Shown here: in pieces, positions 5,001 to 62,584 of the stretch
Layout of the letters: each line of letters begins with the position of its first letter
Position numbering within the stretch: position 1 is the stretch's first letter
DNA from: Christensenella sp. UBA7862
GTDB lineage: Bacteria > Bacillota > Clostridia > Christensenellales > UBA1242
Assembly: GCA_002500135.1 (NCBI GenBank)
Contig: DLSM01000010.1
Coordinates: 69,063-133,062, forward strand
DNA length: 64,000 bases
Direction: 5' to 3'
Notes under the pieces: model-generated
Database searches by the model: none
What the model was told of the DNA's origin: nothing
Seen by the model: the letters and a program-made list of their open reading frames with translations, nothing else
Made by a program: the position numbers and the translations under genes

Positions 5001-6290
5001 GTTCAAGCAAAAGACAAACAAGCTCCAGTTATTTCTGGCGTTGACAATAGTGACGCTACAATCGAACTTGGCGAAACATTGAACCTTTATCAAATTGTGG
5101 CTACTGACAATCAATCTTCAGAAGACGAAATTACTTTGAACTTTGAAGTTAAAGATCAAAACGGAAAATATGTTAACTCATGGTGCAATGACTTCAACAG
5201 AACATTCACTCCAGAAGCAGTTGGCACTTACACAGTTTCTGTTTCTGCAACAGATAAAGATGGCAACACTTCGACAAAGAGTTCATTTACGGTTAAAGTT
5301 CAAGACACATTGAAACCAGTTATCAATCTTATTGGTGACACAACTGACGAAATCTCATATTCTGAAGAAGATATTGCAACTTCTTTCCCACAAGTTTCTA
5401 TTCCAACATTCACAGTTGCTGACCAAAAACCAGAAAATTCAACAGTCACAAAAGGCGGAATTTTCGGTGCAACAGGGTCAATCAAACTCTCTGCTCCAAC
5501 AAAGGGAAGCGACAACAAGAGTGAATATGAATATGACATGCAAGGCAATTTGAAAGACGGAAAAGACAGATTTAACTTCACACGTGTCGGCGATGTGTTC
5601 AAATTTACACCTGATGCAAGAGGAACTTATACAATCACTTACACAGCAACTGACCTCAATGGCAACAAGGCTGAAAACGAAAGAACAATCACAATTCGTG
5701 TTGGCGACACTGAAGCTCCACAAATCATCTTGACTTCAACTCTCAAAAACATTCTTGATTCTGGCTTCGTGCTTGGCGAAAATACAACTTTGAAAATCAA
5801 CACAAATGCAAGAATTTACTCAGAAAGCAACTATGATTCCGAACACGTTTATTTGAAAGATAACGTTGCTGGAATTGAAGGCTTTAACTGCAAAGAATAC
5901 AAAAACCCAGATGACGAAAGCGAAGTGCTTTATCACTATTATACAGTTGGCGTAACAATCACTGACGGCAATAGTTCACGAGTTTCTTCAACATCTGACG
6001 ACAATGGATACTTGACATTTGACTTTAAGTCTGCTGGAACTTACACAATCACATTTACAGCAACAGACAAAGCAGGCAACAAGGAAACATGGTCAAGACA
6101 ATTTAAAGTTGTTGCTCCAGATTCAACAACATCTGAAAAGACAACAATAATTGGAACAATTCTTATTGTTATCTCTGCAATCGTTCTTGCTGGCGTTGTG
6201 CTTTACTTCATCAAAGGCACAAAGATTGCCAAAAACAGAAAGAAAGGCAAAAAAGTTGACAACAAGAAGAATGACAAAATTGAAGCTTAA
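2085..6290 (+). CDS. giant cell-surface protein (about 1400 aa) with signal peptide, many Ig-like (DUF5011/HYR-like) repeats, C-terminal TM anchor and polybasic tail
   Basis: ATG at 2085 after AGGAGAG. N-terminus MKRLKKLFAAGLMTVVTGFACVGSAVANFA looks like a signal peptide. Repeated modules have the form D..APV(I/F)...TD..GN....F.V.V. The C-terminus is TIIGTILIVISAIVLAGVVLYFIKG followed by KIAKNRKKGKKVDNKKNDK. No LPXTG motif. Confidence 0.8.
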   Translation: MKRLKKLFAAGLMTVVTGFACVGSAVANFAKAFFSFGSVNAAVGENKNTNTDSSVVRGKIVTVSNFPSTENLERGTKIDLPYLGAEGSVADVAVAKDLSTTGFETDDQLYAEITNPYGVKLTKYDKAVSTQGDYGKTIVTTAGEGQVSYNETSKKLEFTPAIAGPYKVQYYVKNAAGTWTSSPVYELSVQKTTYGMEMVENSATVMPSTVKVVETSAKVTVGLPLVYDKEGNLVTDDIVLGDKFAENGEDYYYVAKYESRATEASPLKLGDVTSVSLSDTVQNTYAEYKTYYVRKVKASEVNANYRLYVEAGNQTNATISGTKTALNFVDASKVTTEGVAYDLNAYEFNASKGINSIQYKLCMNNDSANPAKPETYLTRTIEGKSTYDNSEVELGATPAKKFLSTDLEYGEKTYLPKVSAVDLKNNKSSVNAFYYYTVKVKTKDGYSVDKVTMGKDEKGFYFIPLAATGSTYEIYYNVRDFYGNTVEDDDNADYPNHYQVSITDRKSPTVSFARSFNGLASDMDTEDLTDYSYSIPTKVKIGDTIAVPAIYASDNSGISSITRSIQSKDKTFKSTKEGETTSTNVSGTIYLTRQDGSTATSSGFTLGQTGSTINDIVTFSDVSYENGFKVVNNEFTKQDGTAFENDEYMRAKNSQVAFVKIDEKVFGKGTYTLTLNATDKALNSNSSSRTYTFEVVEDDVDFGTPTVTYGKSTVNNVTKDQEFKIAVPKISDNQTTNPLVRYYAVVTNGANVTYHQLSLDDSKSNIVVKMNETVGETNKTLYDLAAETTSRNFEIRAYVMNYGSKFYETNRVALAGATKAQAEELILNWFKDNYDAKADEEKDKSVAMASYKISLKNLDDKEAPVFVNETGTIFDQNTVEVEQFKEIEVNGVKFTDNTSSAYVYAEVRDSKGNIYDYSERGSLVIKEVGGKYEYTFPGIKFTPTNADKENYYTVTYMLQDRGGNTVSYSVVLVQAKDKQAPVISGVDNSDATIELGETLNLYQIVATDNQSSEDEITLNFEVKDQNGKYVNSWCNDFNRTFTPEAVGTYTVSVSATDKDGNTSTKSSFTVKVQDTLKPVINLIGDTTDEISYSEEDIATSFPQVSIPTFTVADQKPENSTVTKGGIFGATGSIKLSAPTKGSDNKSEYEYDMQGNLKDGKDRFNFTRVGDVFKFTPDARGTYTITYTATDLNGNKAENERTITIRVGDTEAPQIILTSTLKNILDSGFVLGENTTLKINTNARIYSESNYDSEHVYLKDNVAGIEGFNCKEYKNPDDESEVLYHYYTVGVTITDGNSSRVSSTSDDNGYLTFDFKSAGTYTITFTATDKAGNKETWSRQFKVVAPDSTTSEKTTIIGTILIVISAIVLAGVVLYFIKGTKIAKNRKKGKKVDNKKNDKIEA

Positions 6291-6306
6291 TTAAGTCTAA
6301 AATAAA

Positions 6307-6338
6307 AAATCTCTCGGGCAAAACTGGGAGATTTTTTT
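6307..6338 (+). terminator. intrinsic terminator after surface-protein gene
   Basis: ATCTCTC-GGGCAAAACT-GGGAGAT hairpin followed by T7. Confidence 0.65.
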
Positions 6339-6378
6339 ATTTATTGAGTTCCATAAAGAAATTTTTCATAGACAAAAA

Positions 6379-6390
6379 AAACATATGTTC
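6379..6390. promoter_or_regulatory. candidate LexA (Cheo/SOS) box upstream of uvrB
   Basis: AAACATATGTTC versus the Gram-positive consensus GAAC-N4-GTTC, with one mismatch in the left half-site. It lies about 55 nt upstream of the uvrB ATG and just upstream of a TGaTATAAT extended -10. Confidence 0.45.
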
Positions 6391-6443
6391 AAAAGGTTGT
6401 TTTTTTTGAGAATAGTGATATAATACATCATAAGGAGAGTTTT

Positions 6444-8402
6444 ATGGCATACGACCTTCATTCAAACTTCAAATTGTGTGGCGACCAACCACAAGCAGTG
6501 GAAAGTATTGTTCGTGGCATAAACGAGGGACTGAAAGAACAAGTCCTTCAAGGTGTAACGGGCAGTGGCAAAACATTCACAATGGCAAATATCATAAAGC
6601 AAGTTAACAAACCAACCCTTGTTTTGGCACACAATAAGACTCTCGCAGGGCAACTTTGCAACGAGTTTAGGGAGTTTTTCCCAAACAATCGTGTGGAATA
6701 TTTTGTGTCCTATTATGATTATTATCAGCCCGAGGCTTACATTGTAAAAAGTGACACATATATTGAGAAAGACGCTTCTGTAAATGACGAAATAGACAAA
6801 CTTCGCCACTCTGCCACTTGTTCACTTTTGGAATCAAACAATGTTATTGTTGTGGCATCTGTTTCATGCATTTATGCACTTGGGGCGCCACAAGAATATT
6901 ATGACATGAGCATATCTATTCGCCTTGGCGAAGATTATAATAGGCAAGACCTTATCAAAAAACTTATTGAAATTCGCTACGAACGCAATGATGTGGACTT
7001 CAAAAGGTCAACTTTCAGAATAAAGGGCGACATTTTGGACATAATTCCGTCAAATTACAATGAAAAGGCAATCAGAATTGAGTTTTTTGACACAACGGTG
7101 GATAGAATTAGCGAGTTTGATGTTGTATCAGGAAAGACAATTTGCGACCTAAAGCACGTGGCTATCTTTCCAGCAACTCACTATGCCGTCAAAAGTGAAG
7201 AATTGCAAAAAGCCATAAAAAACATTGAAAAAGACAGAGATGAAGAAGTTGAAAAGTTTTTGGAGCAGGGCAAATTGCTTGAAGCACAAAGGCTGAAAGA
7301 GCGAGTGAGTTATGATATTGAAATGATGCGTGAAATTGGCTATTGCAGCGGGATTGAAAATTATTCCAGATATTTCGACGGGCGAAAACCCGGACAAGCA
7401 CCATTTACACTTTTGGACTACTTTCCAAAAGATTTTCTGCTTTTTGTTGACGAAAGCCACATAACCTTGCCACAAGTTAGAGGAATGTTTAATGGCGACC
7501 ACCAACGCAAAGAATCGCTTGTGAACTATGGCTTTAGACTGCAATCGGCTTTTGACAACAGACCACTTAACTTTGATGAATTTAATGAACGACTAAATCA
7601 AGTTGTCTATGTTTCCGCAACACCTGCAAAATATGAAATGGAGCGAGCGGAAAATGTTGCAATTCAGCTTATAAGACCAACGGGACTTCTTGACCCAGTG
7701 GTTGAAGTCCGCCCAACGAAATATCAAGTTGACGACTTGATTGAAGAAATTAACATTGCGACAAATGCTGGTGGCAGAGTTCTTGTAACAACATTAACAA
7801 AGAAAATGGCGGAAAGTTTGACCGAATATTTGACAAGTTTCAAGATAAAAACACGCTATATGCACTCGGACATTGACGCACTTGAGCGGCTTGATATAAT
7901 AAATGGGCTAAGGCGGGGTGTTTTTGACGTGCTTGTGGGCATAAATCTTTTGCGTGAAGGGCTGGACATTCCAGAAGTTATGCGAGTTGCAATTCTTGAC
8001 GCAGATAAAGAAGGCTTTTTGCGAAGTGACACTGCTCTTATCCAAACAATAGGGCGTGCAGCGAGAAACAGCGAGTCAAAAGTTATTATGTATGCCGACA
8101 CAATGACCGATTCTATGAAACGTGCCATTGATATTACAAACGAAAGACGAAGAATTCAACAACAATATAACGAAGAACACAACATTACGCCAAAAACTAT
8201 CATAAAAGACATTTCATCAACGCTTGAAATCACTTCAAAAACCAAAAAGACAGACGACAGCAAACTTTCAAGAAAAGACGTTTCAAAGGAAATTGAACAT
8301 CTAAAAAGTCTTATGGAAAACTGTGTCAAAAGCCTTGATTTTGAGAGTGCAATCAAACTTAGAGATAGAATTGGCGAACTAAAAATGATGTTAAACAACT
8401 GA
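6444..8402 (+). CDS. uvrB: excinuclease ABC subunit B
   Basis: 652 aa. Contains [10 protein letters not shown] Walker A, helicase motifs and a C-terminal UVR domain ([15 protein letters not shown]). Confidence 0.97.
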
Positions 8403-8415
8403 TTAGAGGAGAAAA

Positions 8416-11229
8416 ATGGAAGATAAAATACAAATTTATGGGGCAAAGGAGAACAATCTTAAAAATATAAGCTTAACTCTGCCAAGAAACAAGTTAATTG
8501 TTTTCAGCGGAGTTAGCGGAAGTGGAAAATCGACCCTTGCTTTTGGCACAATCTTTGCCGAGGGACAAAGAAGATTTATTGAATCGCTTTCATCATATGC
8601 AAGACAGTTTTTGGGGCAAATGGGCAAGCCAGATGTGGAAAAAATTGAGGGGCTTTCTCCCGCAATTTCAATCGACCAAAAAACAACTTCGCACAACCCT
8701 CGTTCCACTGTTGGAACTGTGACGGAAATTTACGACTATTTGCGATTGCTTTTTTCAAGGCTGGGGACTCCATATTGCCCACATTGCAAAAAGCCAATAA
8801 CCACAACCACTGTTGACAACATTGTTGACAATGTTATGGAACACGAAGAAGGCAGCAAAGTGGTTGTTGTGGCACCTATTGTCAGAAGCGAAAAGGGAAC
8901 ATTTGCCAAACTTTTTGAGGAACTAAGAAAAGACGGCTTTGCTCGTGTGGAGGTTGACGGCGAAATTCGTGACTTGAATGAAGAAATTGAGCTTGAAAAG
9001 AATGTAAAACACGAAATTAGTGTTGTTGTGGATAGGCTTAAAGTTAGGGAAGAAAACAGAAGCCGACTTTCGCAAAGTGTGGAAGTGGCACTCAAAAAAT
9101 CTTCTGGACTTGTTGCCATTGAAATTAACGATGAAAAATTGCTCTTCAACAACTCCTACTCTTGTGCTGATTGCGGTTTCTCTTTTGAAGAAATTTCACC
9201 ACGACTATTCAGTTTTAACAGTCCATTTGGGGCGTGCGAAAAATGTGGCGGACTGGGCTTTGTTTCAGACATTGACGAAAAACTGCTTATTAAAGACCCA
9301 AACAAAACACTTCGAGAAGGCGGAATGAGAATTGCAAGTTGGGCAATGGAAATCTCTTCAATTAGCGAAATGTATTTGAATGCTTTGTCAAAGAAATATG
9401 ATTTTAGTCTTGATGTGCCAATAAAGTCGCTTCCAAAAAGAGTTATGGACATTTTGCTTTATGGTAATAACGGCGAGGAACTAGATCTTGCATATGCAAA
9501 TTCAAAGTTTTCGGGCAGTTATAAGGGCAGTTGGGAAGGCGTTGTGCCAATGATTAGACGTCGCTTTGCCGAGAGCAAAAGTGAATATGCAAAACAAGAA
9601 TATAGCAAACTTATGCGTGATTCACTTTGCAGCGAGTGTGGCGGCAAAAGGTTAAATGAAAAGGCGCTTTCGGTGTATATTGGGCGAAAAAATATAAGCG
9701 ATTTGACTGAAATGAGTGCAATGGAACTTAGAGATTTTTGCATGAATCTTAAAATAAAGCCACAAGACGAAGCAGTTGCAAAGCCAATTTTGAAAGAAAT
9801 TATTGCAAGATTGTCATTCCTATGTGATGTTGGACTTGACTATTTGACCCTTGCCAGAATGGCAAAAACATTAAGCGGTGGCGAAGCACAACGAATAAGA
9901 CTTGCAACTCAAATTGGCAGTGGACTTGTGGGCGTTTTGTATATTTTTGACGAACCAAGCATTGGACTTCACCAATATGACAACGAAAAATTACTCAATT
10001 CCTTGAAAAAACTTCGTGACCTCGGCAACACTCTCATTGTTGTTGAACATGATGAAGATACAATAAGAAGTGCGGACTATGTTGTTGACCTTGGCCCAAA
10101 AGCTGGGGAATTTGGGGGTAAAATTGTGGCTTGTGGCACGCCAAAGGACATTATGAAGTGCAAAGAGTCACTTACTGGAAAGTATCTTACGGGCGAACTC
10201 AAAATTGAAATTCCAAAGAAAAGACGTAAACCACAAGGATATTTGACCCTATCTGGCGTAAGGCAAAACAACCTCAAAAATATAAAAGTTGACATTCCAC
10301 TAGGTGTTCTAACAGTTGTCACGGGGCTTAGCGGAAGTGGCAAGTCCAGCCTTGTAAATGAAGTTTTGTTCCCAGCAGTTTCCAATCAAGTTATGCATTC
10401 CAGTTTGCAAGAAGGGAAATATAGAAGCATAAAAGGCATTGAACAGATTGACAAAGTTATCAACATTGACCAATCACCAATCGGCAGAACACCACGAAGC
10501 AACCCCGCAACATACATCGGACTGTTCACCCTTATTCGTGACCTTTTTGCCTCCACTCCAGACGCTCAAGAACGTGGATATACAAGCGGCAGATTTAGTT
10601 TTAATGTGAAAGGCGGCAGGTGCGAAAATTGTGAAGGTGACGGCGAGAAAAAAGTTGAAATGTACTTTTTGCCAGATGTTTATGTGCCTTGCCCATATTG
10701 TCGTGGCAAGAGATATAATAGGGAAACATTGCAGGTGAAATATAAGGGTAAGAGTATAAGTGACGTGCTTGAAATGAGTGTTGAAGAAGCCTTGAAATTC
10801 TTTGAAAATTTGCCTTCAATAAAAAACAAAGTTCAAAGCCTTTATGATGTTGGCTTGGGATACATTAAACTCGGGCAAAGTGCCACAACTCTTAGTGGCG
10901 GTGAAGCACAAAGAGTTAAACTTGCCAGCGAACTTTGTAAGCGGGATACTGGCAAAACGCTTTATATTCTTGACGAACCTACAACGGGACTTCACAGTTA
11001 TGACATCAACAATCTTGTAAACATTCTTCAAAAACTTGTTGACAAAAACAATTCAGTTGTTGTTATTGAACACAATCTTGATGTTATAAAAATTGCCGAC
11101 TACATCATTGACCTTGGCCCAAATGGGGGAGATAGGGGCGGAGAAGTGGTCGCACACGGAACGCCAGAGCATGTTGCGAAAGTTCCGGAGAGCAAAACGG
11201 GACTTTTCCTTAAAAAACTTTTGAAATGA
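8416..11229 (+). CDS. uvrA: excinuclease ABC subunit A
   Basis: 937 aa. Has two ABC ATPase modules (GVSGSGKST, GLSGSGKSS; LSGGEAQR twice) and zinc-finger Cys clusters. Confidence 0.97.
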   Translation: MEDKIQIYGAKENNLKNISLTLPRNKLIVFSGVSGSGKSTLAFGTIFAEGQRRFIESLSSYARQFLGQMGKPDVEKIEGLSPAISIDQKTTSHNPRSTVGTVTEIYDYLRLLFSRLGTPYCPHCKKPITTTTVDNIVDNVMEHEEGSKVVVVAPIVRSEKGTFAKLFEELRKDGFARVEVDGEIRDLNEEIELEKNVKHEISVVVDRLKVREENRSRLSQSVEVALKKSSGLVAIEINDEKLLFNNSYSCADCGFSFEEISPRLFSFNSPFGACEKCGGLGFVSDIDEKLLIKDPNKTLREGGMRIASWAMEISSISEMYLNALSKKYDFSLDVPIKSLPKRVMDILLYGNNGEELDLAYANSKFSGSYKGSWEGVVPMIRRRFAESKSEYAKQEYSKLMRDSLCSECGGKRLNEKALSVYIGRKNISDLTEMSAMELRDFCMNLKIKPQDEAVAKPILKEIIARLSFLCDVGLDYLTLARMAKTLSGGEAQRIRLATQIGSGLVGVLYIFDEPSIGLHQYDNEKLLNSLKKLRDLGNTLIVVEHDEDTIRSADYVVDLGPKAGEFGGKIVACGTPKDIMKCKESLTGKYLTGELKIEIPKKRRKPQGYLTLSGVRQNNLKNIKVDIPLGVLTVVTGLSGSGKSSLVNEVLFPAVSNQVMHSSLQEGKYRSIKGIEQIDKVINIDQSPIGRTPRSNPATYIGLFTLIRDLFASTPDAQERGYTSGRFSFNVKGGRCENCEGDGEKKVEMYFLPDVYVPCPYCRGKRYNRETLQVKYKGKSISDVLEMSVEEALKFFENLPSIKNKVQSLYDVGLGYIKLGQSATTLSGGEAQRVKLASELCKRDTGKTLYILDEPTTGLHSYDINNLVNILQKLVDKNNSVVVIEHNLDVIKIADYIIDLGPNGGDRGGEVVAHGTPEHVAKVPESKTGLFLKKLLK

Positions 11230-54297: not shown

Positions 54298-55347
54298 ATG
54301 GAACTTATTATTGACACAAGTTCAGATGAACTTATTGCTATTTTAAAAGATAAGGGAAAAGTGTATCAAGCAGAAAAACTTCGCGGAAAACACCAAGAAA
54401 CACTTTTGCCACAAATTGACTTGTTGCTGAAAAACACTAGCAAAACTTCAAAAGATATAGACGTTTTTGGCGTTGTTGTGGGGCCAGGGTCTTTTACGGG
54501 TGTAAGGCTTGCAGTGTCCACAGTCAAAGCCTTTTGTTCAGTTTTCGACAAAAAGGTTATCGGCATAAATATGCTTGAACTTTTGGGTGAAAAACTAAAA
54601 GACGGGCAAGCAGCCGCAATAAAATGCACCAGTCAAAAAGTTTATCTTGTAAAGAAAGAAAGAGGTGAACTCCATAAGTCCGTTTGCCCAAATGAAGAAG
54701 TTTTGCCACTTGCAAAAACTCACAATCTTTTTGGCTTCAACATGGGCAAAATTGGGGAAGAAACTCTGCCACAAATTGCTTTAAGCACAGACGATTACAT
54801 TAACTTTGTTGAAAGGGAGATTAAACAAAACAACTTTGTTCCCGCTCAAAGACTTGAACCAGTGTATATGGCTCTTTCTCAAGCGGAAGAAGAACTTTTG
54901 AAAAAAGAACATACACAAATTGTTCCTTTTGAAGAAAAATATGCAGAAGATATGTTTGAACTGCAAGACGCCGTCATGCCAGAACTTGACAAAATGTCAA
55001 AAAAGAGTTTTATGGCGGAATTTAAGGAAAAAACAAGAACATATTTTGTTGCAAAAAGAGGAGATTTTGTTGTAGGCTATATTGGACTTTTGTCTTGCGA
55101 CACCGACCAAAATATAGTTAGCGTTGCCGTCAGAAAAGAACTTTGGGGACAAGGAATTGGAAGCAAACTTGTCTTGCGAGCAAAAAAGTTTGCCGTGGAT
55201 AATGACTACAAAACTTTGTCACTTGAAGTTGATGAAAAAAATGATAGAGCGGTTACTTTTTACAAAAAAATTGGCTTTGAAGTAACAAATATTAGAAAAA
55301 AATATTATAAGGATAATGACGCCCTTGTGATGTTTTTGAAAATATGA
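54298..55347 (+). CDS. tsaB: TsaB (t6A threonylcarbamoyl-transfer complex dimerisation subunit) fused to RimI-type GNAT acetyltransferase
   Basis: N-terminus IDTSSDELIAIL...VVGPGSFTGVRLAVSTVKAF is TsaB. The C-terminal 150 aa (VAVRKELWGQGIGSKLV...FYKKIGFE) are a GNAT/RimI domain. Confidence 0.8.
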   Translation: MELIIDTSSDELIAILKDKGKVYQAEKLRGKHQETLLPQIDLLLKNTSKTSKDIDVFGVVVGPGSFTGVRLAVSTVKAFCSVFDKKVIGINMLELLGEKLKDGQAAAIKCTSQKVYLVKKERGELHKSVCPNEEVLPLAKTHNLFGFNMGKIGEETLPQIALSTDDYINFVEREIKQNNFVPAQRLEPVYMALSQAEEELLKKEHTQIVPFEEKYAEDMFELQDAVMPELDKMSKKSFMAEFKEKTRTYFVAKRGDFVVGYIGLLSCDTDQNIVSVAVRKELWGQGIGSKLVLRAKKFAVDNDYKTLSLEVDEKNDRAVTFYKKIGFEVTNIRKKYYKDNDALVMFLKI

Positions 55348-56087
55348 AATGTTATTTTGAGAATGTAGAAATAAACTATGAAATATTAAAAACGGGGGAG
55401 ATAGGCACTCCCCTTGTTTTTTTGCATGGCTGGGGTGGCAGCACAAAAAGTTTTGAATATTTTGCAAAGAAAATGAGTAAATATCGCACATGCGTCCTCA
55501 TTGACTTCCCGCCATTTGGAAAATCTGGAAGTTTTGACACTCCTTGGGATGTTGACAAATATACAAATTGTGTTTTGCAAGTTTTAAAAGACATTGGGGC
55601 AAAAAAATGTGACATTGTAGCACATTCCTTTGGCGGCAGGGTCGCCCTTCAAATGGCTGGAAAAACTGATATTGTTAGGCGAATGCTTCTCACTGGCTGT
55701 GCGGGGATAAATCAAAAAAGTTTTAAAACAAAATGCAAAATTAGGATATATAAGTTTAAAAAGTTTTTATGCAAATGCGGACTTTTATCAAAGTCAAAAC
55801 TTTTGGGCAAGGGAAGTGAGGAATACAAAAATCTTTCCCCTATTATGAAACAAACTTTTAGGAATGTTGTAAATTATGATGAAAGATATTTGTTCAAAAA
55901 TATTTCTTGCCCAACACTTCTTGTTTGGGGAAAAGATGACACAGCAACCCCTTTTCGCTGGACAAAAATCTTTAAAAAACATATAAAAGATTGTGAAGTT
56001 ATAAGTCTAGACGGCGACCACTTTGCTTATCTTCAAAATGCGAGCAAATTTCTTAAAATAATGCAATCTTTTTTGGCAAAAATATAA
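55344..56087 (+). CDS. alpha/beta-fold hydrolase
   Basis: LVFLHGWGGS and AHSFGGRVAL (G-x-S-x-G). Confidence 0.75.
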   Translation: MKCYFENVEINYEILKTGEIGTPLVFLHGWGGSTKSFEYFAKKMSKYRTCVLIDFPPFGKSGSFDTPWDVDKYTNCVLQVLKDIGAKKCDIVAHSFGGRVALQMAGKTDIVRRMLLTGCAGINQKSFKTKCKIRIYKFKKFLCKCGLLSKSKLLGKGSEEYKNLSPIMKQTFRNVVNYDERYLFKNISCPTLLVWGKDDTATPFRWTKIFKKHIKDCEVISLDGDHFAYLQNASKFLKIMQSFLAKI

Positions 56088-56146
56088 AATCATTAACTTT
56101 TGGTTTGAATATACAAAAAATAGTGCTAAAATAAAGCGAGGTGAAA

Positions 56147-57772
56147 ATGAATTTTCTTGCAGTTGATAACATTCATTTGTATATAACGATTGTCCTATCG
56201 CTCCTAAACGGAGTGCTTATGTGCTTTGCTTCATACAAATATTTTCAAATTATCCAACTTTCTGGCTACAAACTCAAAGGCTACTTCAGTTGGCTTAGGG
56301 AAACAAAGTGGAGTTATGCTTTAAGAATGGTGCTTTTAAGTTTGCTCAGTGGCTTTTGCGTACTTGTAACGAATGCACTTTTCAACGTCTATCACAAGCA
56401 AGCGTTATATTCATATATCGGGTTGATATTTTATTTCTATTTTGCAATCGTCTTCATAAAAGCCCTTTACAACGCTCCAAAGAAAATTCCACTTAAAAAC
56501 ACCACCCGCATGACAAGACTTAATGTTGCAATGTTCATTTTCGTAAGTTTGTTTTCGTTTGCAGTCGTTTGGGCGTCATTTCAACACCTAAATTTTGTAA
56601 AGTTCGGGGCCTTGTGCTTTGTGCCTGCATTTGTTGTGTTTATTGTTCCTATCGTGCATATAATAATGCTTCCACTTGAAAAACTTATCGTTGCAAGATA
56701 TCTTCACAGTGCAAAAAGAAAACTTGTCAAACGCCAAGACTTAATTAAAATTGGCATTACGGGAAGTTATGCGAAAACAAGTGTAAAATACATCTTGAAC
56801 ACAATTCTATCTCAAAAATACAAAGTTTGTATGAGCCCTCAAAGTTTTAACACCCAAACGGGACTTAGCAAAGTGGTGAACAACTATCTTACAGACCTAG
56901 ACCAAGTTCTTATTGCCGAAATGGGGGCAAGGAGCAAGGGAGATATCAAAAAACTTTGCAAACTTATCTCGCCAAAATATGGAATAATAACGGGAATTTC
57001 ACCACAACACCTTTTGACATTTAAATCTTTGGATAACATAAAGAAAACAAAATTTGAACTGGTGGAAAGTTTGCCAAGTGACGGAACTTGTGTGTTTAAT
57101 GGTTTTGACAGCGAAGTTTGCGACATGTATTCATGGACAAAATTAGAGAAAAAATATCTTGTTGGAAAAGACAAAGACCTTGCCGCAAAAGACATTACAT
57201 TTGACCAAGATGGCACAAAATTTACCCTTGTTATGGGTAAAAAAGAGTATAAAGTTTCAACAAAACTTTTGGGCGAACACAATGTCCAAAACATATTACT
57301 CTGCGTCAAAATGGCAAAATGCCTTGACCTTGACGACAAACAAATTATTGCTGGAATTGAGTCCTTGCAACCAGTGCCACATCGACTTGAAATTATAAAA
57401 ACTCCAACAAACATTATCCTTGACGACTCCTTCAACGCAAATGTCCGTGGCAGCAAAATCGCTCTTGATGTGTTGAGCAAACTTCCGGGTAGAAAAGTTG
57501 TTATAACTCCAGGGCTTGTGGAACTGGGAGAAAAAGAATATGAAGAAAACTTCGCCTTTGGTGCGGAAATCGCAAAAATATCTGACTTTGTAATTATCGT
57601 AAACAAAGTGAATTTTGAAGCAATTAAAGCAGGTCTTGACAGCGAGAACTTTAAGGAAGAAAATATCTTCCAAGCCGAAACCCTAGACCAAGCCAAAATA
57701 CTCATGAAAGACTTTCTCGCCCCCGGTGACACAATCCTCTTTGAAAACGACCTCCCAGACAACTATATCTAA
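56147..57772 (+). CDS. murF: Mur ligase family protein, MurF-like, with about 190-aa polytopic N-terminal membrane domain
   Basis: ATG at 56147 after GAGGTG. Five or so hydrophobic helices are followed by GITGSYAKTS (Mur P-loop), EMGARSKGDI, PHRLE...LDDSFNANVRGS...ITPGLVELGE (MurF C-terminal motifs). Confidence 0.7.
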   Translation: MNFLAVDNIHLYITIVLSLLNGVLMCFASYKYFQIIQLSGYKLKGYFSWLRETKWSYALRMVLLSLLSGFCVLVTNALFNVYHKQALYSYIGLIFYFYFAIVFIKALYNAPKKIPLKNTTRMTRLNVAMFIFVSLFSFAVVWASFQHLNFVKFGALCFVPAFVVFIVPIVHIIMLPLEKLIVARYLHSAKRKLVKRQDLIKIGITGSYAKTSVKYILNTILSQKYKVCMSPQSFNTQTGLSKVVNNYLTDLDQVLIAEMGARSKGDIKKLCKLISPKYGIITGISPQHLLTFKSLDNIKKTKFELVESLPSDGTCVFNGFDSEVCDMYSWTKLEKKYLVGKDKDLAAKDITFDQDGTKFTLVMGKKEYKVSTKLLGEHNVQNILLCVKMAKCLDLDDKQIIAGIESLQPVPHRLEIIKTPTNIILDDSFNANVRGSKIALDVLSKLPGRKVVITPGLVELGEKEYEENFAFGAEIAKISDFVIIVNKVNFEAIKAGLDSENFKEENIFQAETLDQAKILMKDFLAPGDTILFENDLPDNYI

Positions 57773-57776
57773 CCTC

Positions 57777-57806
57777 AAAAGACTAGACCTTCTAGTCTTT
57801 TTTCTA
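57777..57806. repeat. left copy of perfect 30-bp direct repeat (also the murF intrinsic terminator)
   Basis: AAAAGACTAGACCTTCTAGTCTTTTTTCTA is identical to 60419-60448. It contains the hairpin AGACTAGA-CCT-TCTAGTCT plus T6. Confidence 0.95.
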
Positions 57807-57810
57807 GGGG

Positions 57811-57839
57811 TTGACAAATAGATGAAAATATGGTAAAAT
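57811..57839 (+). promoter_or_regulatory. consensus extended -10 promoter at the left edge of the inserted cassette
   Basis: TTGACA (57811-57816), 17 nt, TGgTAAAAT (57831-57839). Confidence 0.6.
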
Positions 57840-57863
57840 TCCTATAATATCAAGGAGGGGGAT

Positions 57864-58964
57864 ATGAAATTATTTAAAAAGAAAGCAATAATTGTATCTA
57901 TCTTTATGGCAATTATTGTGAGTTTATCATTTCTTATGTCAGGATACATAAACTCAAAAACAGAAATCGCAGTCCGAAATGTGGATGTTAGCGAAATTGG
58001 CACCTTATCGTATGAAGAAAAAGCCGCAGAACTAAAAGAAAAGTTTGATAGTATTGAAACTTTTGAAAATGATGATTATATTGGCTTTTGTGGTGAGATT
58101 AATGTTGATAAATATAATTTGTTAAATACAAGTTATGAGAATGATGAGGTAAAGGAAAAATATGCCTCACAAATTAACAAAAATACAGATGAAATTACTA
58201 TAGAGAAAAATATAATTGTTGATGGGACAAGTGTTGGAACTGTTTCAGAATCTTTTAGTACAAGGTATGATGAAGTAAATGATAGATACCTTCTTATTGA
58301 TCAAGATGGGAATGAGATTGATGTTTTTACACAACTAAATGAAGACAATATGAATGAATGTTTTGCACTTTTTGCTGTTATTGCAACGCTCACTATAAAA
58401 CAGATTATAGCAGTTTGTGTTGTTACAGCAATCACTATTGTTGTCGCTGTGAATGCAAAAACTATTGCAAATGATATTAAAACCTTGGTTGATGGAGTTC
58501 GTGACGGAGTTATTTCTTTCTGGGAAAGAATTAAACTTATGCTTGGACAGATAACTGCAATAGCCTTGGCTGGAACAATTTCTTTAACAGAGGCTTTGGC
58601 TAAGGAAATATATGAAGTGGCAAAAAATCGAAAAGATTGTTATTTGTTGTGTGGAACTATAACTGGGGCAGGCTTTATTCCAATTATGTATAAATTTACA
58701 AATTATGAAAACGCACGTAATTGGATAAAACGAGGCGGTTCTGTTTGGTCACCATTCTCATCAACAGCCGAAAGATGTGTTGAAGGGGCGGGATTTGTCC
58801 CAGGGGGAAAAGATGAAATGAGCAAGCAATATGTTCCTTACGTGGCAGAGTGCCACAAGATTTCACCATTTTCATTTTATCATTATCATACGCTTAGAAA
58901 TCATAGTTATATTAGAGTAAACAATTCTGCTCATTCGTTCTTTGGTTTGCCAGTTAGAAAATAG
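57864..58964 (+). CDS. cassette gene 1: hypothetical membrane protein (366 aa) with N-terminal anchor, central hydrophobic/amphipathic region and Cys/His-containing C-terminal domain
   Basis: ATG after GGAGGGGG. MKLFKKKAIIVSIFMAIIVSLSFLMSG. Central region CFALFAVIATLTIKQIIAVCVVTAITIVVAV. C-terminus ...KDCYLLCG...FYHYHTLRNHSYIRVNNSAHSFFGLPVRK. AT-rich. Confidence 0.6.
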   Translation: MKLFKKKAIIVSIFMAIIVSLSFLMSGYINSKTEIAVRNVDVSEIGTLSYEEKAAELKEKFDSIETFENDDYIGFCGEINVDKYNLLNTSYENDEVKEKYASQINKNTDEITIEKNIIVDGTSVGTVSESFSTRYDEVNDRYLLIDQDGNEIDVFTQLNEDNMNECFALFAVIATLTIKQIIAVCVVTAITIVVAVNAKTIANDIKTLVDGVRDGVISFWERIKLMLGQITAIALAGTISLTEALAKEIYEVAKNRKDCYLLCGTITGAGFIPIMYKFTNYENARNWIKRGGSVWSPFSSTAERCVEGAGFVPGGKDEMSKQYVPYVAECHKISPFSFYHYHTLRNHSYIRVNNSAHSFFGLPVRK

Positions 58965-58974
58965 TGAGGGTGTT

Positions 58975-59706
58975 ATGGAAGAATTTAAAAAGATAAATGA
59001 CTTATCGGATTACATGAGTGAAAATTACAAGGCAAGCAAGTTTCTAAATTTGAAAAATGCTTCTGAAAGATTTCCTAACTTGTTTTACTCTAAAAATATT
59101 TCTGAAATATCAAACTGCTTAATAAACGAGGGTGATAGATATGTTTGTTATGTGTTTGATAGGAAAGAGAATGTTTTTATCATAGCCAGTTATTATGAAG
59201 ATAACACAATAAGAGAAATCTTTATTCCTGACGAATTCCAGTGCGATTTTGATAAAAGTGAAATTGATAAATTATATTCATTTGTCCCTTTCTTTACACA
59301 ATATATGAGTAATAACGGAGCAAGTGAATTTAACAATATAATAAAAAAATACAATGGCGTTTATAATGAAGAAAACATAAAAGATTTGTTTGTGAACTGC
59401 TTTAATGCGAAGGAAGTTAGTGAACAAGAAGTTTATGATAATTGTTTTTTGATTAGAAATATTGAAATCAATAATATAAATCAAAAAGAGAAAGTTAAAA
59501 ATCAATTTCATAATTTTACAAAGAAATGTTTTTATCTCGAGGGAGAAATGTTCTATATCCCTAGACTTGAAAAAGAGTGCTATATTGTTGTTGAATTTAG
59601 TAACAACAAACTTATAAGTATTATGTTTGGCTTTAACCGTTTTAAATATAAAAGGCAACTTGAACAACTTGTTGATGTTAAAGAAGTTTTGAATTTATTA
59701 TCTTGA
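58975..59706 (+). CDS. cassette gene 2: hypothetical cytoplasmic Asn/Glu/Lys-rich protein (243 aa)
   Basis: ATG at 58975, 11 nt after the gene 1 stop, with a GAGGGTG RBS. No TM segment and no recognised family. Confidence 0.55.
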   Translation: MEEFKKINDLSDYMSENYKASKFLNLKNASERFPNLFYSKNISEISNCLINEGDRYVCYVFDRKENVFIIASYYEDNTIREIFIPDEFQCDFDKSEIDKLYSFVPFFTQYMSNNGASEFNNIIKKYNGVYNEENIKDLFVNCFNAKEVSEQEVYDNCFLIRNIEINNINQKEKVKNQFHNFTKKCFYLEGEMFYIPRLEKECYIVVEFSNNKLISIMFGFNRFKYKRQLEQLVDVKEVLNLLS

Positions 59707-59738
59707 GGATTGTGCTTTTATGATAAAGGAGTATTTAA

Positions 59739-60428
59739 TTGAAAAAAAGAACTTTAATTATAAATTACATCGTTTTGGGGCTGCTGTTTATTGTGAATAT
59801 TATGGCTATAATTTTCTATGTAACACCAGTGGACACGGATAGAGTTTTTGAAGAAAATATACTGAAAGTTGTTGAAATTAAGTCTTCAAGCGACGAAGAG
59901 GCTTGGGGATATGCCACTGGGTTTTTTATTGATGGTAATGGCACAATCTTAACGAATAGGCATGTCGTTAGAGATTTAACATCTAATGTAAACTATGGTG
60001 TGATAAAAGTGCGAACTGCAACTGAAGAAGAATGGATTGACGCAACAATTTTAAAAGTTAGTGAAAAAGATGATTTGGCGTTGATAAAAATAGAAAGGGA
60101 AAATACAAAATATTTTGTCTTTGATGAAAATGTCCTTAATGGAGAAACAATTTTTACAATAGGCAACCCTAGTGGGTTTGGGTTGTCATTTGCTACTGGT
60201 GTTGTTTCCAGTAATAGAAGGGGTATTGTTTATAATGGTCAAGAGATTGAAACTATGCAAACAAGCCTTGTGATAAATGAAGGAAACAGTGGTGGACCTG
60301 TTTTTAATTTAAGTGGAAAGGCGCTAGGAATTATCAGTTTTAGATTAAAAGATAGGAATAATGATGTTATTCAGGGTGTATCATTTGCATTAAGAGCAAG
60401 CACAATAAATAACTTTTTAAAAGACTAG
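59739..60428 (+). CDS. cassette gene 3: membrane-anchored trypsin-like (S1C/HtrA-type, no PDZ) serine protease
   Basis: TTG start after AGGAG. N-terminal TM (LIINYIVLGLLFIVNIMAIIFYV). Catalytic triad contexts TNRHVV, DDLALIKI, GNSGGPVFN. The stop codon lies inside the right 30-bp repeat. Confidence 0.8.
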   Translation: MKKRTLIINYIVLGLLFIVNIMAIIFYVTPVDTDRVFEENILKVVEIKSSSDEEAWGYATGFFIDGNGTILTNRHVVRDLTSNVNYGVIKVRTATEEEWIDATILKVSEKDDLALIKIERENTKYFVFDENVLNGETIFTIGNPSGFGLSFATGVVSSNRRGIVYNGQEIETMQTSLVINEGNSGGPVFNLSGKALGIISFRLKDRNNDVIQGVSFALRASTINNFLKD

Positions 60429-60448
60429 ACCTTCTAGTCTTTTTTCTA
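60419..60448. repeat. right copy of perfect 30-bp direct repeat (terminator of cassette)
   Basis: AAAAGACTAGACCTTCTAGTCTTTTTTCTA is identical to 57777-57806. Confidence 0.95.
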
Positions 60449-60497
60449 AACATTTTGGCGGGCTGTTTCATATATAAAGCCAAAGGACGGGAAAGAT

Positions 60498-61646
60498 ATG
60501 AAACAGAATGTTGTGGTGTTATTTGGCGGGGTGAGTGTTGAACATGATATTTCAGTTATAACGGGTTCGCAAGTGCTTGCAAATTTGGATAGGGAAAGGG
60601 ACAATATTATTCCAATATACATTTCAAAAGACGGGAGATTCTTGACGGACGAAAACTTTTGGGATGTTACATATTTTGCAAAAGAACAAAACTTCTCTAA
60701 GGCGAAGCAAGTGTTTTTTGCTGCGGGTGGCAATTTGTTTTGCATAAAGGGCAAAAAGGCAAAACTTTTATGTAAGGTAGATTTTGCATATCTTGCACTT
60801 CATGGCGGAATGGGCGAAAGCGGCTCTGTTCAAGGGCTTCTTGATTGTGTTGGGGTGAAATATTCCAGTTGTGACAGTTTTGCAAGCGGTGTTTGCATGA
60901 ACAAATTTTGCACCAAAGTTCTAGCAAAAGAGCAAAAAATACCTGTTGCAAAGGGCATTTTGCTATCTTCAGACGACAAAAATATTTCTGCAAGCAACCT
61001 TGCCGAGCGGGTTAAGGGGCTTAATTATCCAATAGTTGTAAAGCCAAACAATCTTGGCAGCAGCATTGGCATAACCTTTTGCAAAGACGAGGAGATGTTG
61101 CATGGGGCGGTGACTTTTGCTTTCCTATTTGACACAGAAGTTCTGTGCGAGGAAGCAGTTTGCAACTTAAGAGAACTCAACATCGCTTGCCTTGGGACAA
61201 GGGAAATGTGCGAATGTTCTCTTGTTGAAGAAGTGACACCAAACAAAGATTTCTTAACTTTTGAAAACAAATATCTTGGTGGCGGCAAGGGCATGGAATC
61301 GCAAAAGCGAATTGTGCCAGCAAGCGTTTCAAAAAAGATACTGAATAGGATAGAAATTTATGCAAAGAGAATGTTTAAGGCGGTTAAAATGAAGGGCTGT
61401 GTGCGAATGGATTTTTTGATGGACGAAAAGACAGAAACAGTCTATCTTAATGAAGTTAATCCAATCCCTGGCTCGCTGGCGAATTATCTTTGGGGGAATA
61501 AGGGCTATTCTTTCCAAAACCTGCTTGAAAAAATGAAGGACTATGCCGACATGGACTATGAGGAAAAGGCAAAAAAGATAACTCAATTTTCCTCTTCAGT
61601 TTTGAAAAACTTTTCTGGGTGCGATGGGGATAAATTCGGGAAATAA
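60498..61646 (+). CDS. ddl: D-alanine--D-alanine ligase
   Basis: VLFGGVSVEHDISVITG, LHGGMGESGSVQGLL, VKPNNLGSSIGI, and the C-terminal NEVNPIPGS ATP-grasp motifs. Confidence 0.93.
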   Translation: MKQNVVVLFGGVSVEHDISVITGSQVLANLDRERDNIIPIYISKDGRFLTDENFWDVTYFAKEQNFSKAKQVFFAAGGNLFCIKGKKAKLLCKVDFAYLALHGGMGESGSVQGLLDCVGVKYSSCDSFASGVCMNKFCTKVLAKEQKIPVAKGILLSSDDKNISASNLAERVKGLNYPIVVKPNNLGSSIGITFCKDEEMLHGAVTFAFLFDTEVLCEEAVCNLRELNIACLGTREMCECSLVEEVTPNKDFLTFENKYLGGGKGMESQKRIVPASVSKKILNRIEIYAKRMFKAVKMKGCVRMDFLMDEKTETVYLNEVNPIPGSLANYLWGNKGYSFQNLLEKMKDYADMDYEEKAKKITQFSSSVLKNFSGCDGDKFGK

Positions 61647-61738
61647 CAATTAATACAAAAATTGGGAAACATGATTTTCGTTGATTTTTGTTGTAAATTT
61701 GTGTAATTTATTGTATCATTTTACAAAAGGGAAAAGAA

Positions 61739-62584
61739 ATGAGAGTTTTGCAAGAGAAAAACAGAATTATTGTTGAAAGCGAAGACGATTTTGACATAAA
61801 GCAAATTTTGGAATGTGGGCAAGTTTTTAGTTTTTACAAAAGGCACAACAGATACATAGTCACAAGCATGGATAAGGTGGCACACATAACTTTTTGTGGA
61901 AATAAGACAATTATTGATACAAGTGACGTTGACTACTTTTACAACTATTTTGACTTAGGCACAGATTATGGCAAAATTAGGGCTAAAATTAAGGAATATT
62001 ATCCCAATTTTGACAGGTATTTTGCTGGCGGAAAAGACATCCGCATTTTGCATCAAGACCCATTTCAAACCATAATTAGTTTTATTGTTTCGGCAAATAA
62101 CAACATTGCAAGAATTAAGAAAATATTAAACAACATATCTTTTAAGTTTGGAGAAAAACTTGAAGATAAGATTTATTCTTTTCCAACATTACAAGCACTA
62201 AAAAGTGCTAGTAAAGAAGACTTCGCTGCTGCTGGGGCGGGCTATAGAAGTGAATATCTTGTTAAAACTATAGAAATGTTGCAAGAAGATAGATATAGCA
62301 TAAAAAATATGGAAAATTTGTCAACAAGTGACCTTAGAGAACGGCTTATGGAACTTAAAGGGGTTGGCGGAAAGGTGGCAGATTGCATACTATTTTTTGG
62401 CTTTGGGCGAAGTGACAGTTTTCCAGTGGATACTTGGATAAGAAAGGCTTATCTTCTTTTTTGCAGTAAACCTAGGACTGATAAGGAGATTTCAAAATAT
62501 TTTTTGCAGATATTTAGGGAAGTTTCGGGCTATGCGCAACAATATATCTTCAACTACATGATAAATTACAAACAAGCGGCATAA
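61739..62584 (+). CDS. ogg: 8-oxoguanine DNA glycosylase (OGG1-type, HhH-GPD)
   Basis: N-terminal OGG domain (FDIKQILECGQVF), LMELKGVGGKVADCILFFGFGRSDSFPVDTWIRK (HhH, catalytic Lys, Asp). Confidence 0.8.
   Translation: MRVLQEKNRIIVESEDDFDIKQILECGQVFSFYKRHNRYIVTSMDKVAHITFCGNKTIIDTSDVDYFYNYFDLGTDYGKIRAKIKEYYPNFDRYFAGGKDIRILHQDPFQTIISFIVSANNNIARIKKILNNISFKFGEKLEDKIYSFPTLQALKSASKEDFAAAGAGYRSEYLVKTIEMLQEDRYSIKNMENLSTSDLRERLMELKGVGGKVADCILFFGFGRSDSFPVDTWIRKAYLLFCSKPRTDKEISKYFLQIFREVSGYAQQYIFNYMINYKQAA

Follow-up and report, generated by a model that had tools for sequence, protein, structure and literature searches.

A strain-polymorphic three-gene cassette of Christensenellales links an undescribed membrane protein and its variable neighbour to an anchored serine protease, a candidate effector/immunity system

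We analysed a stretch of 64,000 nucleotides, here called the window, from Christensenella sp. UBA7862 (GenBank assembly GCA_002500135.1, contig DLSM01000010.1, positions 69,063 to 133,062 of the forward strand), in which three consecutive genes, termed g1, g2 and g3, form a cassette between a murF-type ligase gene and ddl (Table 1). As gut bacteria, Christensenellales are heritable and associated with health, most of them are uncultured, and to our knowledge almost nothing has been reported on how they compete or defend themselves. An earlier note on this DNA, made from the letters and their open reading frames, had proposed that the trio encodes a secreted or membrane effector, a cognate cytoplasmic protein and a dedicated membrane protease. 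We confirmed all three open reading frames at the places given there, with a spacing of 10 nt between the g1 stop codon and the g2 ATG, which is preceded by GAGGGTG, and a TTG start codon for g3. Compared with the closest relative (locus L005, about 88% DNA identity), the ratio of nonsynonymous to synonymous substitution rates (dN/dS) was 0.07 for g1, 0.17 for g2 and 0.04 for g3, similar to the values of neighbouring housekeeping genes, and all three are therefore maintained coding genes under purifying selection. Literature and database searches returned no prior description of the cassette proteins.

The trio is a self-contained accessory insertion. In the more distant relatives L019, L023 and L024 the gene order abhydrolase-murF-ddl is uninterrupted and murF is followed directly by ddl (in L019 ogg adjoins ddl on its 3' side), so the cassette has been inserted between two genes that otherwise stand side by side. 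Its GC content is 0.25-0.34, compared to 0.36-0.42 in the flanks, and a promoter-like site that matches the consensus upstream of g1 would provide the cassette with a promoter of its own. These results, together with the joint exchange of g1 and g2 between strains described below, bear out the earlier description of a self-contained accessory system with its own promoter and a foreign composition. Both edges of the cassette are formed by exact copies of a 30-bp terminator repeat. The left copy forms a hairpin with a folding energy of -16.6 kcal/mol (z = -3.5), and the g3 stop codon TAG (60426-60428) falls within the right one. The exact repeat occurs in two copies in the 64 kb, where none is expected by chance, and the terminator duplication is also found in sister genomes. 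It may be an insertion footprint, arising from target duplication or from recombination at the terminator. There is no integrase or transposase near the cassette, searches of phage genomes, plasmids and IMG/VR viral contigs found no cassette match, and an Rfam scan of 55500-62000 found no RNA family match.

Table 1. Features of the cassette and its immediate flanks, in window coordinates
Feature	Position	Strand	Description
murF-type ligase gene	56141-57772		5' neighbour of the cassette
Left 30-bp direct repeat (AAAAGACTAGACCTTCTAGTCTTTTTTCTA)	57777..57806	+	hairpin and T-run; terminator of the murF-like gene; left cassette edge
Promoter-like site TTGACA-17-TG-n-TAAAAT (extended -10)	57811..57839	+	11/12 consensus matches, best of the region
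Ribosome-binding site AGGAGGGGG	57853-57861	+	strong; upstream of g1
g1, membrane protein, polymorphic effector candidate	57864..58964	+	366 aa; undescribed family, founding member
g1 residues 1-31	57864..57956	+	KKK, then an 18-20-residue hydrophobic stretch; Sec signal peptide or anchor
g1 residues 38-54, RNVDVSEIGTLSYEEKA	57975..58025	+	most conserved extracytoplasmic motif; alleles diverge after it
g1 residues 55-164	58026..58355	+	very acidic, beta-rich ectodomain, variable between alleles
g1 residues 165-203	58356..58472	+	central hydrophobic block; read as one membrane-spanning segment
g1 residues ~205-366	58476..58961	+	conserved alpha/beta C-domain, ~160 aa; candidate catalytic/toxic module
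g1 invariant His codons	H340 58881-58883; H342 58887-58889; H357 58932-58934	+	near-invariant H331 58854-58856
g2, cytoplasmic protein, cognate-partner/immunity candidate	58975..59706	+	243 aa
g3, PDZ-less trypsin-fold (Trypsin_2/S1) serine protease	59739..60428	+	229 aa; constant cassette component
Right 30-bp repeat/terminator	60419..60448	+	exact copy; right cassette edge
ddl	60498-61646		3' neighbour of the cassette

The layout first proposed for g1, an N-terminal segment, a hydrophobic block and a C-terminal domain of about 110 residues, held for the first two parts, and the C-terminal domain proved to be larger, with conservation extending over about 160 residues. Residues 1-31 belong to a constant part that different alleles have in common. 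The motif that follows has the consensus R-x-I-[DN]-V-x-E-I-G-T-L-S-Y-E-E-K over residues 38-54, with R38 and Y50 nearly invariant, and lies in a region that is disordered in an AlphaFold2 model of g1. We regard it as a candidate recognition or cleavage site for the g3 protease. Between its two hydrophobic segments g1 has 12 lysines and arginines against 32 aspartates and glutamates, and the ectodomain was modelled at low to moderate confidence (predicted local distance difference test, pLDDT, 33-69). The hydrophobic block is acidic on its N-terminal side, where the 20 residues before it are strongly so, and neutral to basic on its C-terminal side. Short-form homologues of 288-297 aa contain a cleavable-looking signal peptide, a single hydrophobic segment of 23-25 residues and a lysine-rich stretch. 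Because the ectodomain is acidic, the C-terminal side neutral or basic and the short forms single-pass, the C-domain most likely resides in the cytoplasm, giving g1 a type I-like topology, and this charge distribution makes the idea of a secreted effector doubtful.

In the C-domain, 29 diverse members share A284, H340, H342 and H357 without exception and H331 and Y260 almost without exception, and the protein ends in H-S-F-F-G-x-P. The HxH...H arrangement, the conserved feature that looks catalytic, probably constitutes a three-histidine metal site. The earlier note had drawn attention to the cysteine of KDCYLLCG and to the histidine cluster. Both are present in the window, but whereas the histidines are invariant, neither cysteine of that stretch is, with C259 replaced by Q, I, Y, K or R and C264 by L, A or I in homologues. 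AlphaFold2 modelled the C-domain with a pLDDT of 75-96 per 10-residue block, mostly 86-96, and a Foldseek search with this model against PDB and BFVD found nothing at E<0.01. A profile search of the C-domain against PDB sequences gave no match, g1 had no family match in Pfam, NCBIfam, PADLOC or PHROG, and Pfam scans of 17 C-domains from the g1 family yielded sub-threshold noise only. DUF6613 appeared below threshold in 2 of these 17 (best E 8e-4, domain residues ~49-124, window 58470-58961) and may be a remote relative; we found no literature on it. Assignments to JAB/MPN, M23/LytM, HIT, 2H-phosphoesterase, cupin, VOC and HNH-type (AHH/SHH/EHHH) domains were considered and rejected, as the histidine spacing does not fit any of them and neither a profile nor a fold supports them.

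By far the fastest-diverging component of the cassette is g2. As the earlier note had it, g2 belongs to no recognisable family: Pfam, NCBIfam, PADLOC and PHROG returned no match, and scanning g2-family members one by one against Pfam produced sub-threshold noise only. A direct search with g2 gave two matches and a profile search seven members. The genes immediately after g1 in other cassettes constitute the g2 family, which is extremely divergent, has as its unit a module of some 110-120 aa and occurs only beside g1 genes. Window g2 is 29% identical to its counterpart in L001 (E 2e-12), and the remaining members are chained through weaker links. The module occupies the N-terminus of window g2, and the second half of the protein may be a degenerate duplicate of it. 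No member of the family has a signal peptide. A SUKH/SMI1 assignment, considered on the basis of the helix-strand pattern, was dropped because no profile supports it. Between cassettes, g2 similarity tracks that of the C-domain (rho 0.48) more closely than that of the ectodomain (0.22) or the protease (0.03), a weak result drawn from few, non-independent pairs. Partner genes can also be multiplied. The sister genome L008 has two tandem g2 copies that are 73% identical to each other, and in L001 three tandem paralogues of 112-114 aa (7848-8879, 53-63% mutual identity, no family match) separate the g2-like gene from the protease and may be an additional immunity-like array.

The third gene fully matches its first description as a PDZ-less HtrA-type protease with a transmembrane (TM) helix and an intact triad. 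g3 aligns to Trypsin_2 with an E-value of 4e-24, and the triad residues H (TNRHVV), D (DDLALIKI) and S (GNSGGP) are conserved in 9 of 9 aligned cassette proteases. Its N-terminus consists of KKR, a hydrophobic helix and an acidic stretch, from which we predict that the protein is anchored with its catalytic domain outside the cell. With HtrA, DegP and DegQ (family S1C) g3 shares the trypsin fold, the H-D-S triad and an N-terminal anchor as in DegS, and its best NCBIfam hit is of the Do/HtrA type. Unlike them, it has no PDZ domain, ending about 30 residues past the protease domain, is about half the usual length, and scores far under the cut-offs of the HtrA/Deg models (TIGR02037, 103 bits versus 416). 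In PADLOC, g3 matched only the generic protease portions of the RT-Protease, LmuA and PDC models.

We searched 5.8 billion proteins with g1 and recovered 21 relatives, all from uncultured Clostridia, while a profile of the C-domain retrieved 32 proteins at E<=1e-3 from 1.84 billion representatives. One architecture is found across these 32, save for gene fragments and a repetitive spurious match (P0049). The named genomes with the family are Christensenellales, and the family is limited to Christensenellales-like gut Clostridia, in which it is small and patchy.

The association of g1 with a protease is strict. We defined as informative those distinct g1 loci that have enough flanking DNA (n=15, window included), and in 15 of 15 a membrane-anchored serine protease adjoins g1. 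A small cytoplasmic gene stands beside g1 in all of them, in L002 read as an open reading frame only. The three gene types are thus linked in other organisms, and the earlier reading passes the refutation test set for it, a lack of such linkage elsewhere. In long-form cassettes the protease belongs to Trypsin_2 and lies downstream of g1 (window, L001, L002, L003, L005, L007, L008, L009, L011 and L014) or upstream of it (L016 and L027). In the short-form cassettes L015, L017 and L018 it is a TM-anchored Peptidase_S8 protein of about 210 aa that scores above the Pfam cut-off and has intact D/H/S motifs, and the protease is followed by a different small cytoplasmic family, 39% identical between L015 and L018. 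These small membrane-anchored subtilases are encoded at 4191-4826 of L015, 1595-2224 of L017 and 5254-5910 of L018. The 15 loci span at least six unrelated neighbourhoods, including comEC, hemN-hrcA, groEL and accessory islands. As one protease fold has displaced the other while the partnership was kept, we argue that proteolysis of g1, or together with g1, is the selected function.

Two of these loci have features of their own. In L009 a homologue of KwaA from the Kiwa defence system (9851-10414) and many small unannotated open reading frames lie a few kb from the cassette, which suggests an accessory or defence-island setting there. L014, which comes from a contig of an uncultured Christensenella, has a g1 that lacks its 5' part (5998-6540; homology starts at residue ~192) and borders on an unrelated gene of the reverse strand, with the g2-like gene and the protease still intact.

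Comparison with a sister genome revealed that g1 and g2 are replaced together at a fixed point. Between the window and L008, identity is 88-97% for seven flanking genes and for g3 (g3, 95%), whereas g1 is only 33% identical and g2 is replaced by two genes at 32% identity. Within g1, identity is 97% up to the motif and 25% beyond it. DNA similarity to L008 stops at 58020, in codon ~53, where the motif ends, and resumes at 59723, just before g3. A second pair, P0015 (allele type A) and P0045 (type B), which we know from protein sequence only, repeats this pattern with the same motif: identity is 93% in the 55 N-terminal residues and 25% in the rest of the protein. The replacement unit is thus g1 past the motif plus g2, next to a constant signal region, motif and protease. 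The same C-domain with the invariant HxH...H is retained in every allele, B type and short forms included. Since alleles served by the same protease share only about 53 N-terminal residues, the recognition site would most simply lie in the motif; the S8-linked short forms do not have it. The joint exchange of g1 and g2 against a constant protease fits the prediction of a cognate effector and partner. With A and B alleles paired in genomes that are nearly identical elsewhere, a natural experiment is already at hand.

One locus also contains what looks like an orphan module. Following an intact g1-g2 pair, L016 has a 42-codon remnant of a g1 tail (1917-2045, …PAHQNGYFAHYHAYGRPKPSSHAFYGIPTTK) with the signature HYH…H-x-F-Y-G-x-P, which matches the C-domain profile with an E-value of 0.0047 and is the sole match below 0.01 outside g1 genes in all loci. 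A second g2-like open reading frame (2042-2488; weak match, 10.7 bits) comes after it.

We tentatively interpret these results as a mobile, strain-polymorphic cassette of the effector/immunity type, of an undescribed family and with a separate processing protease, a reading that we place somewhat short of probable. The Sec pathway would insert g1 as a type I-like membrane protein, with the acidic ectodomain outside, one membrane segment, and the C-domain inside. The HxH...H site would bind metal, and the C-domain would be the active, possibly toxic, module, presumably directed against competing bacteria. g2 would be the cytoplasmic cognate partner that binds and neutralises the C-domain, co-varying with g1, duplicating in tandem and able to persist as an orphan. 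The cut by g3 would fall in the ectodomain of g1, most likely in or close to the motif that alleles of the same protease have in common, and would mature, activate or release the effector. We favour conflict because the leader is constant up to the motif, g1 and g2 are replaced jointly, and partner arrays and a possible orphan module exist; the exchange of alleles at a set point, the duplicated partners and the left-over g1 tail would mark the cassette as a conflict system. It contributes three undescribed components, namely a membrane protein whose three-histidine domain has no neighbour by sequence or Foldseek, a family of hypervariable partners, and serine proteases that are membrane-anchored and minimal in size.

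The closest parallel is with polymorphic toxins (CdiA-CT/CdiI, Rhs and Sec-dependent toxins of Firmicutes such as WapA/WapI; PMC3482391). Like these, g1 has an N-terminus that is constant up to a short motif and then diverges abruptly, a small partner gene directly downstream that changes with it, tandem partner paralogues, and perhaps one module of a remnant plus an orphan partner (L016, with the weak partner match). The Sec-type N-terminus of g1, assigned by sequence inspection and hydropathy, and the processing by a serine peptidase that we propose have precedents as well, as a survey of polymorphic toxins describes Sec-dependent members with processing peptidases, subtilisin included, and one toxin family with a neighbouring mycosin-like protease (PMC3482391). 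The cassette differs from them in that its peptidase is a separate membrane-anchored product and not an internal releasing domain, and in that its domains match no catalogued Tox, Ntox or Imm family.

Several observations weigh against an effector/immunity system of this kind. The predicted topology would place the putative toxic domain inside the producer, facing its cytoplasm from behind a membrane segment, with no evident route to a target cell. A and B alleles have their C-domain family and its histidines in common, where classical polymorphic toxins exchange unrelated toxin folds, and the variable part is nearly the whole of g1, ectodomain included, instead of the C-terminal tip alone. 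Library scans of g1 and g2 found no match to known toxin, immunity, secretion or defence families. The orphan evidence is thin, coming from the one locus, L016, whose partner is only weakly g2-like (10.7 bits). Finally, the AlphaFold2 model of g2, built from 8 sequences, is too poor (pLDDT 48) for any structural inference about the partner. If the effector truly faces the cytoplasm, the cassette would be a misfit in the export-based picture of polymorphic toxins, and would instead point to a new way of coupling proteolysis outside the cell to an activity inside it.

g1 may be a new type I membrane device and no exported toxin, in which a cytoplasmic three-histidine enzyme domain is under the control of a trypsin- or subtilisin-like sheddase outside, and the allele-specific ectodomain and partner define strain identity. 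We consider this unlikely: if true, it would amount to a proteolysis-gated switch for self/non-self recognition or suicide that has no described counterpart and uses a fold for which PDB offers no neighbour.

Equally doubtful, in our estimate, is a cis-acting suicide or addiction module of the abortive-infection or toxin-antitoxin type, in which the cytoplasmic C-domain of g1 acts as a toxin tethered to the membrane and restrained by g2, and g3, or its failure, couples phage adsorption or envelope damage to toxin activation in the same cell. The predicted topology agrees with such a module, as it places the C-domain and g2 in one compartment, and so do the small size of the cassette, its mobility and its promoter-like site. 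One of the homologous cassettes belongs to an accessory island with the KwaA-type gene nearby, and trypsin-fold proteases are known from several candidate defence systems, though the PADLOC matches of g3 concern the protease domain only. Set against this, neither g1 nor g2 matches a PADLOC model, and the cassette is absent from the phage, plasmid and viral-contig collections. An orphan antitoxin-like gene next to a dead fragment and the partner arrays would better fit protection from the effectors of other cells, and the sharp A/B replacement at a fixed motif is a signature of conflict between strains.

A somewhat weaker candidate is proteolysis-gated transmembrane signalling or self-recognition with no toxin involved. 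Here g3 would shed the g1 ectodomain and thereby switch the C-domain, which would act on g2 by a logic like that of DegS-RseA or BlaR1-BlaI, and the allele diversity would represent specificity groups, as in agr and comQXP pherotypes. In BlaR1 an event outside the cell is coupled to a metal-dependent domain in the cytoplasm that acts on a partner of about 125 aa. The cassette resembles DegS-RseA and BlaR1-BlaI in combining an outward-facing, membrane-bound trypsin-fold protease with a single-pass protein whose cytoplasmic part has a small partner. Features that would suit this scheme are a receptor of type I-like topology whose ectodomain varies, a C-domain conserved across alleles in the manner of an output domain, and one protease serving very different alleles that share nothing but the N-terminal motif. 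The differences are substantial. g3 has no PDZ domain, in contrast to DegS, and g1 as predicted has the reverse orientation, with its C-terminus inside, where anti-sigma factors have their N-terminus inside. The cassette contains no HExxH motif, and its locus is mobile and polymorphic.

Pherotype loci offer a second comparison for signalling. Like agrBDC and comQXP, the cassette has a sharply bounded hypervariable segment of matching components next to a constant component. Unlike them, it contains no gene for a peptide pheromone, no histidine kinase and no response regulator, and its processing enzyme belongs to the constant part and not to the variable one. More generally, family scans found no sigma or anti-sigma domain and no repressor in or beside the cassette, nor is there a DNA-binding, kinase or other signalling domain in g1, g2 or the adjacent cassette genes. 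The cassette moves among unrelated neighbourhoods and no regulated target genes travel with it, and tandem partner paralogues and an orphan remnant would be unexpected for a signalling pair.

A housekeeping role in the envelope tied to murF and ddl, for example as a cell-wall hydrolase together with its regulator and an HtrA-type quality-control protease, is effectively excluded. It would draw on the position of the cassette between the murF-like gene and ddl, on the resemblance of g3 to HtrA/DegP catalytic domains (below every NCBIfam cut-off) and on the HxH motifs found in some peptidoglycan hydrolases. However, relatives keep murF directly beside ddl with no cassette, homologous cassettes of this tiny, patchy family lie in unrelated contexts, strains that are otherwise nearly identical have g1 and g2 exchanged wholesale, g1 matches no hydrolase family and g3 has no PDZ domain. 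Weakest of all is the compatibility with a secreted papain-like or NlpC/P60-type Cys-His hydrolase that the earlier note had allowed for the C-domain: window g1 does contain C259 and C264 with histidines ~70-100 residues away, but with both cysteines replaced in many homologues, no hit in Pfam or NCBIfam to an NlpC/P60, CHAP or peptidase C family, and no papain-like neighbour of the confidently modelled C-domain in Foldseek, we regard it as hardly credible.

Two genes upstream of the cassette are also of note. In the murF-type ligase, matches to Mur_ligase_M/C and TIGR01143 start only at residue ~198, and the first ~190 residues form a multi-helix hydrophobic domain that replaces the usual N-terminal domain and is kept in relatives at 48-83% identity (tblastn). 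Further upstream, directly after tsaE, a 349-aa protein (54298-55347) fuses a TsaB/TsaD-like domain to a RimI-like GNAT acetyltransferase, and this fusion is conserved in sister genomes.

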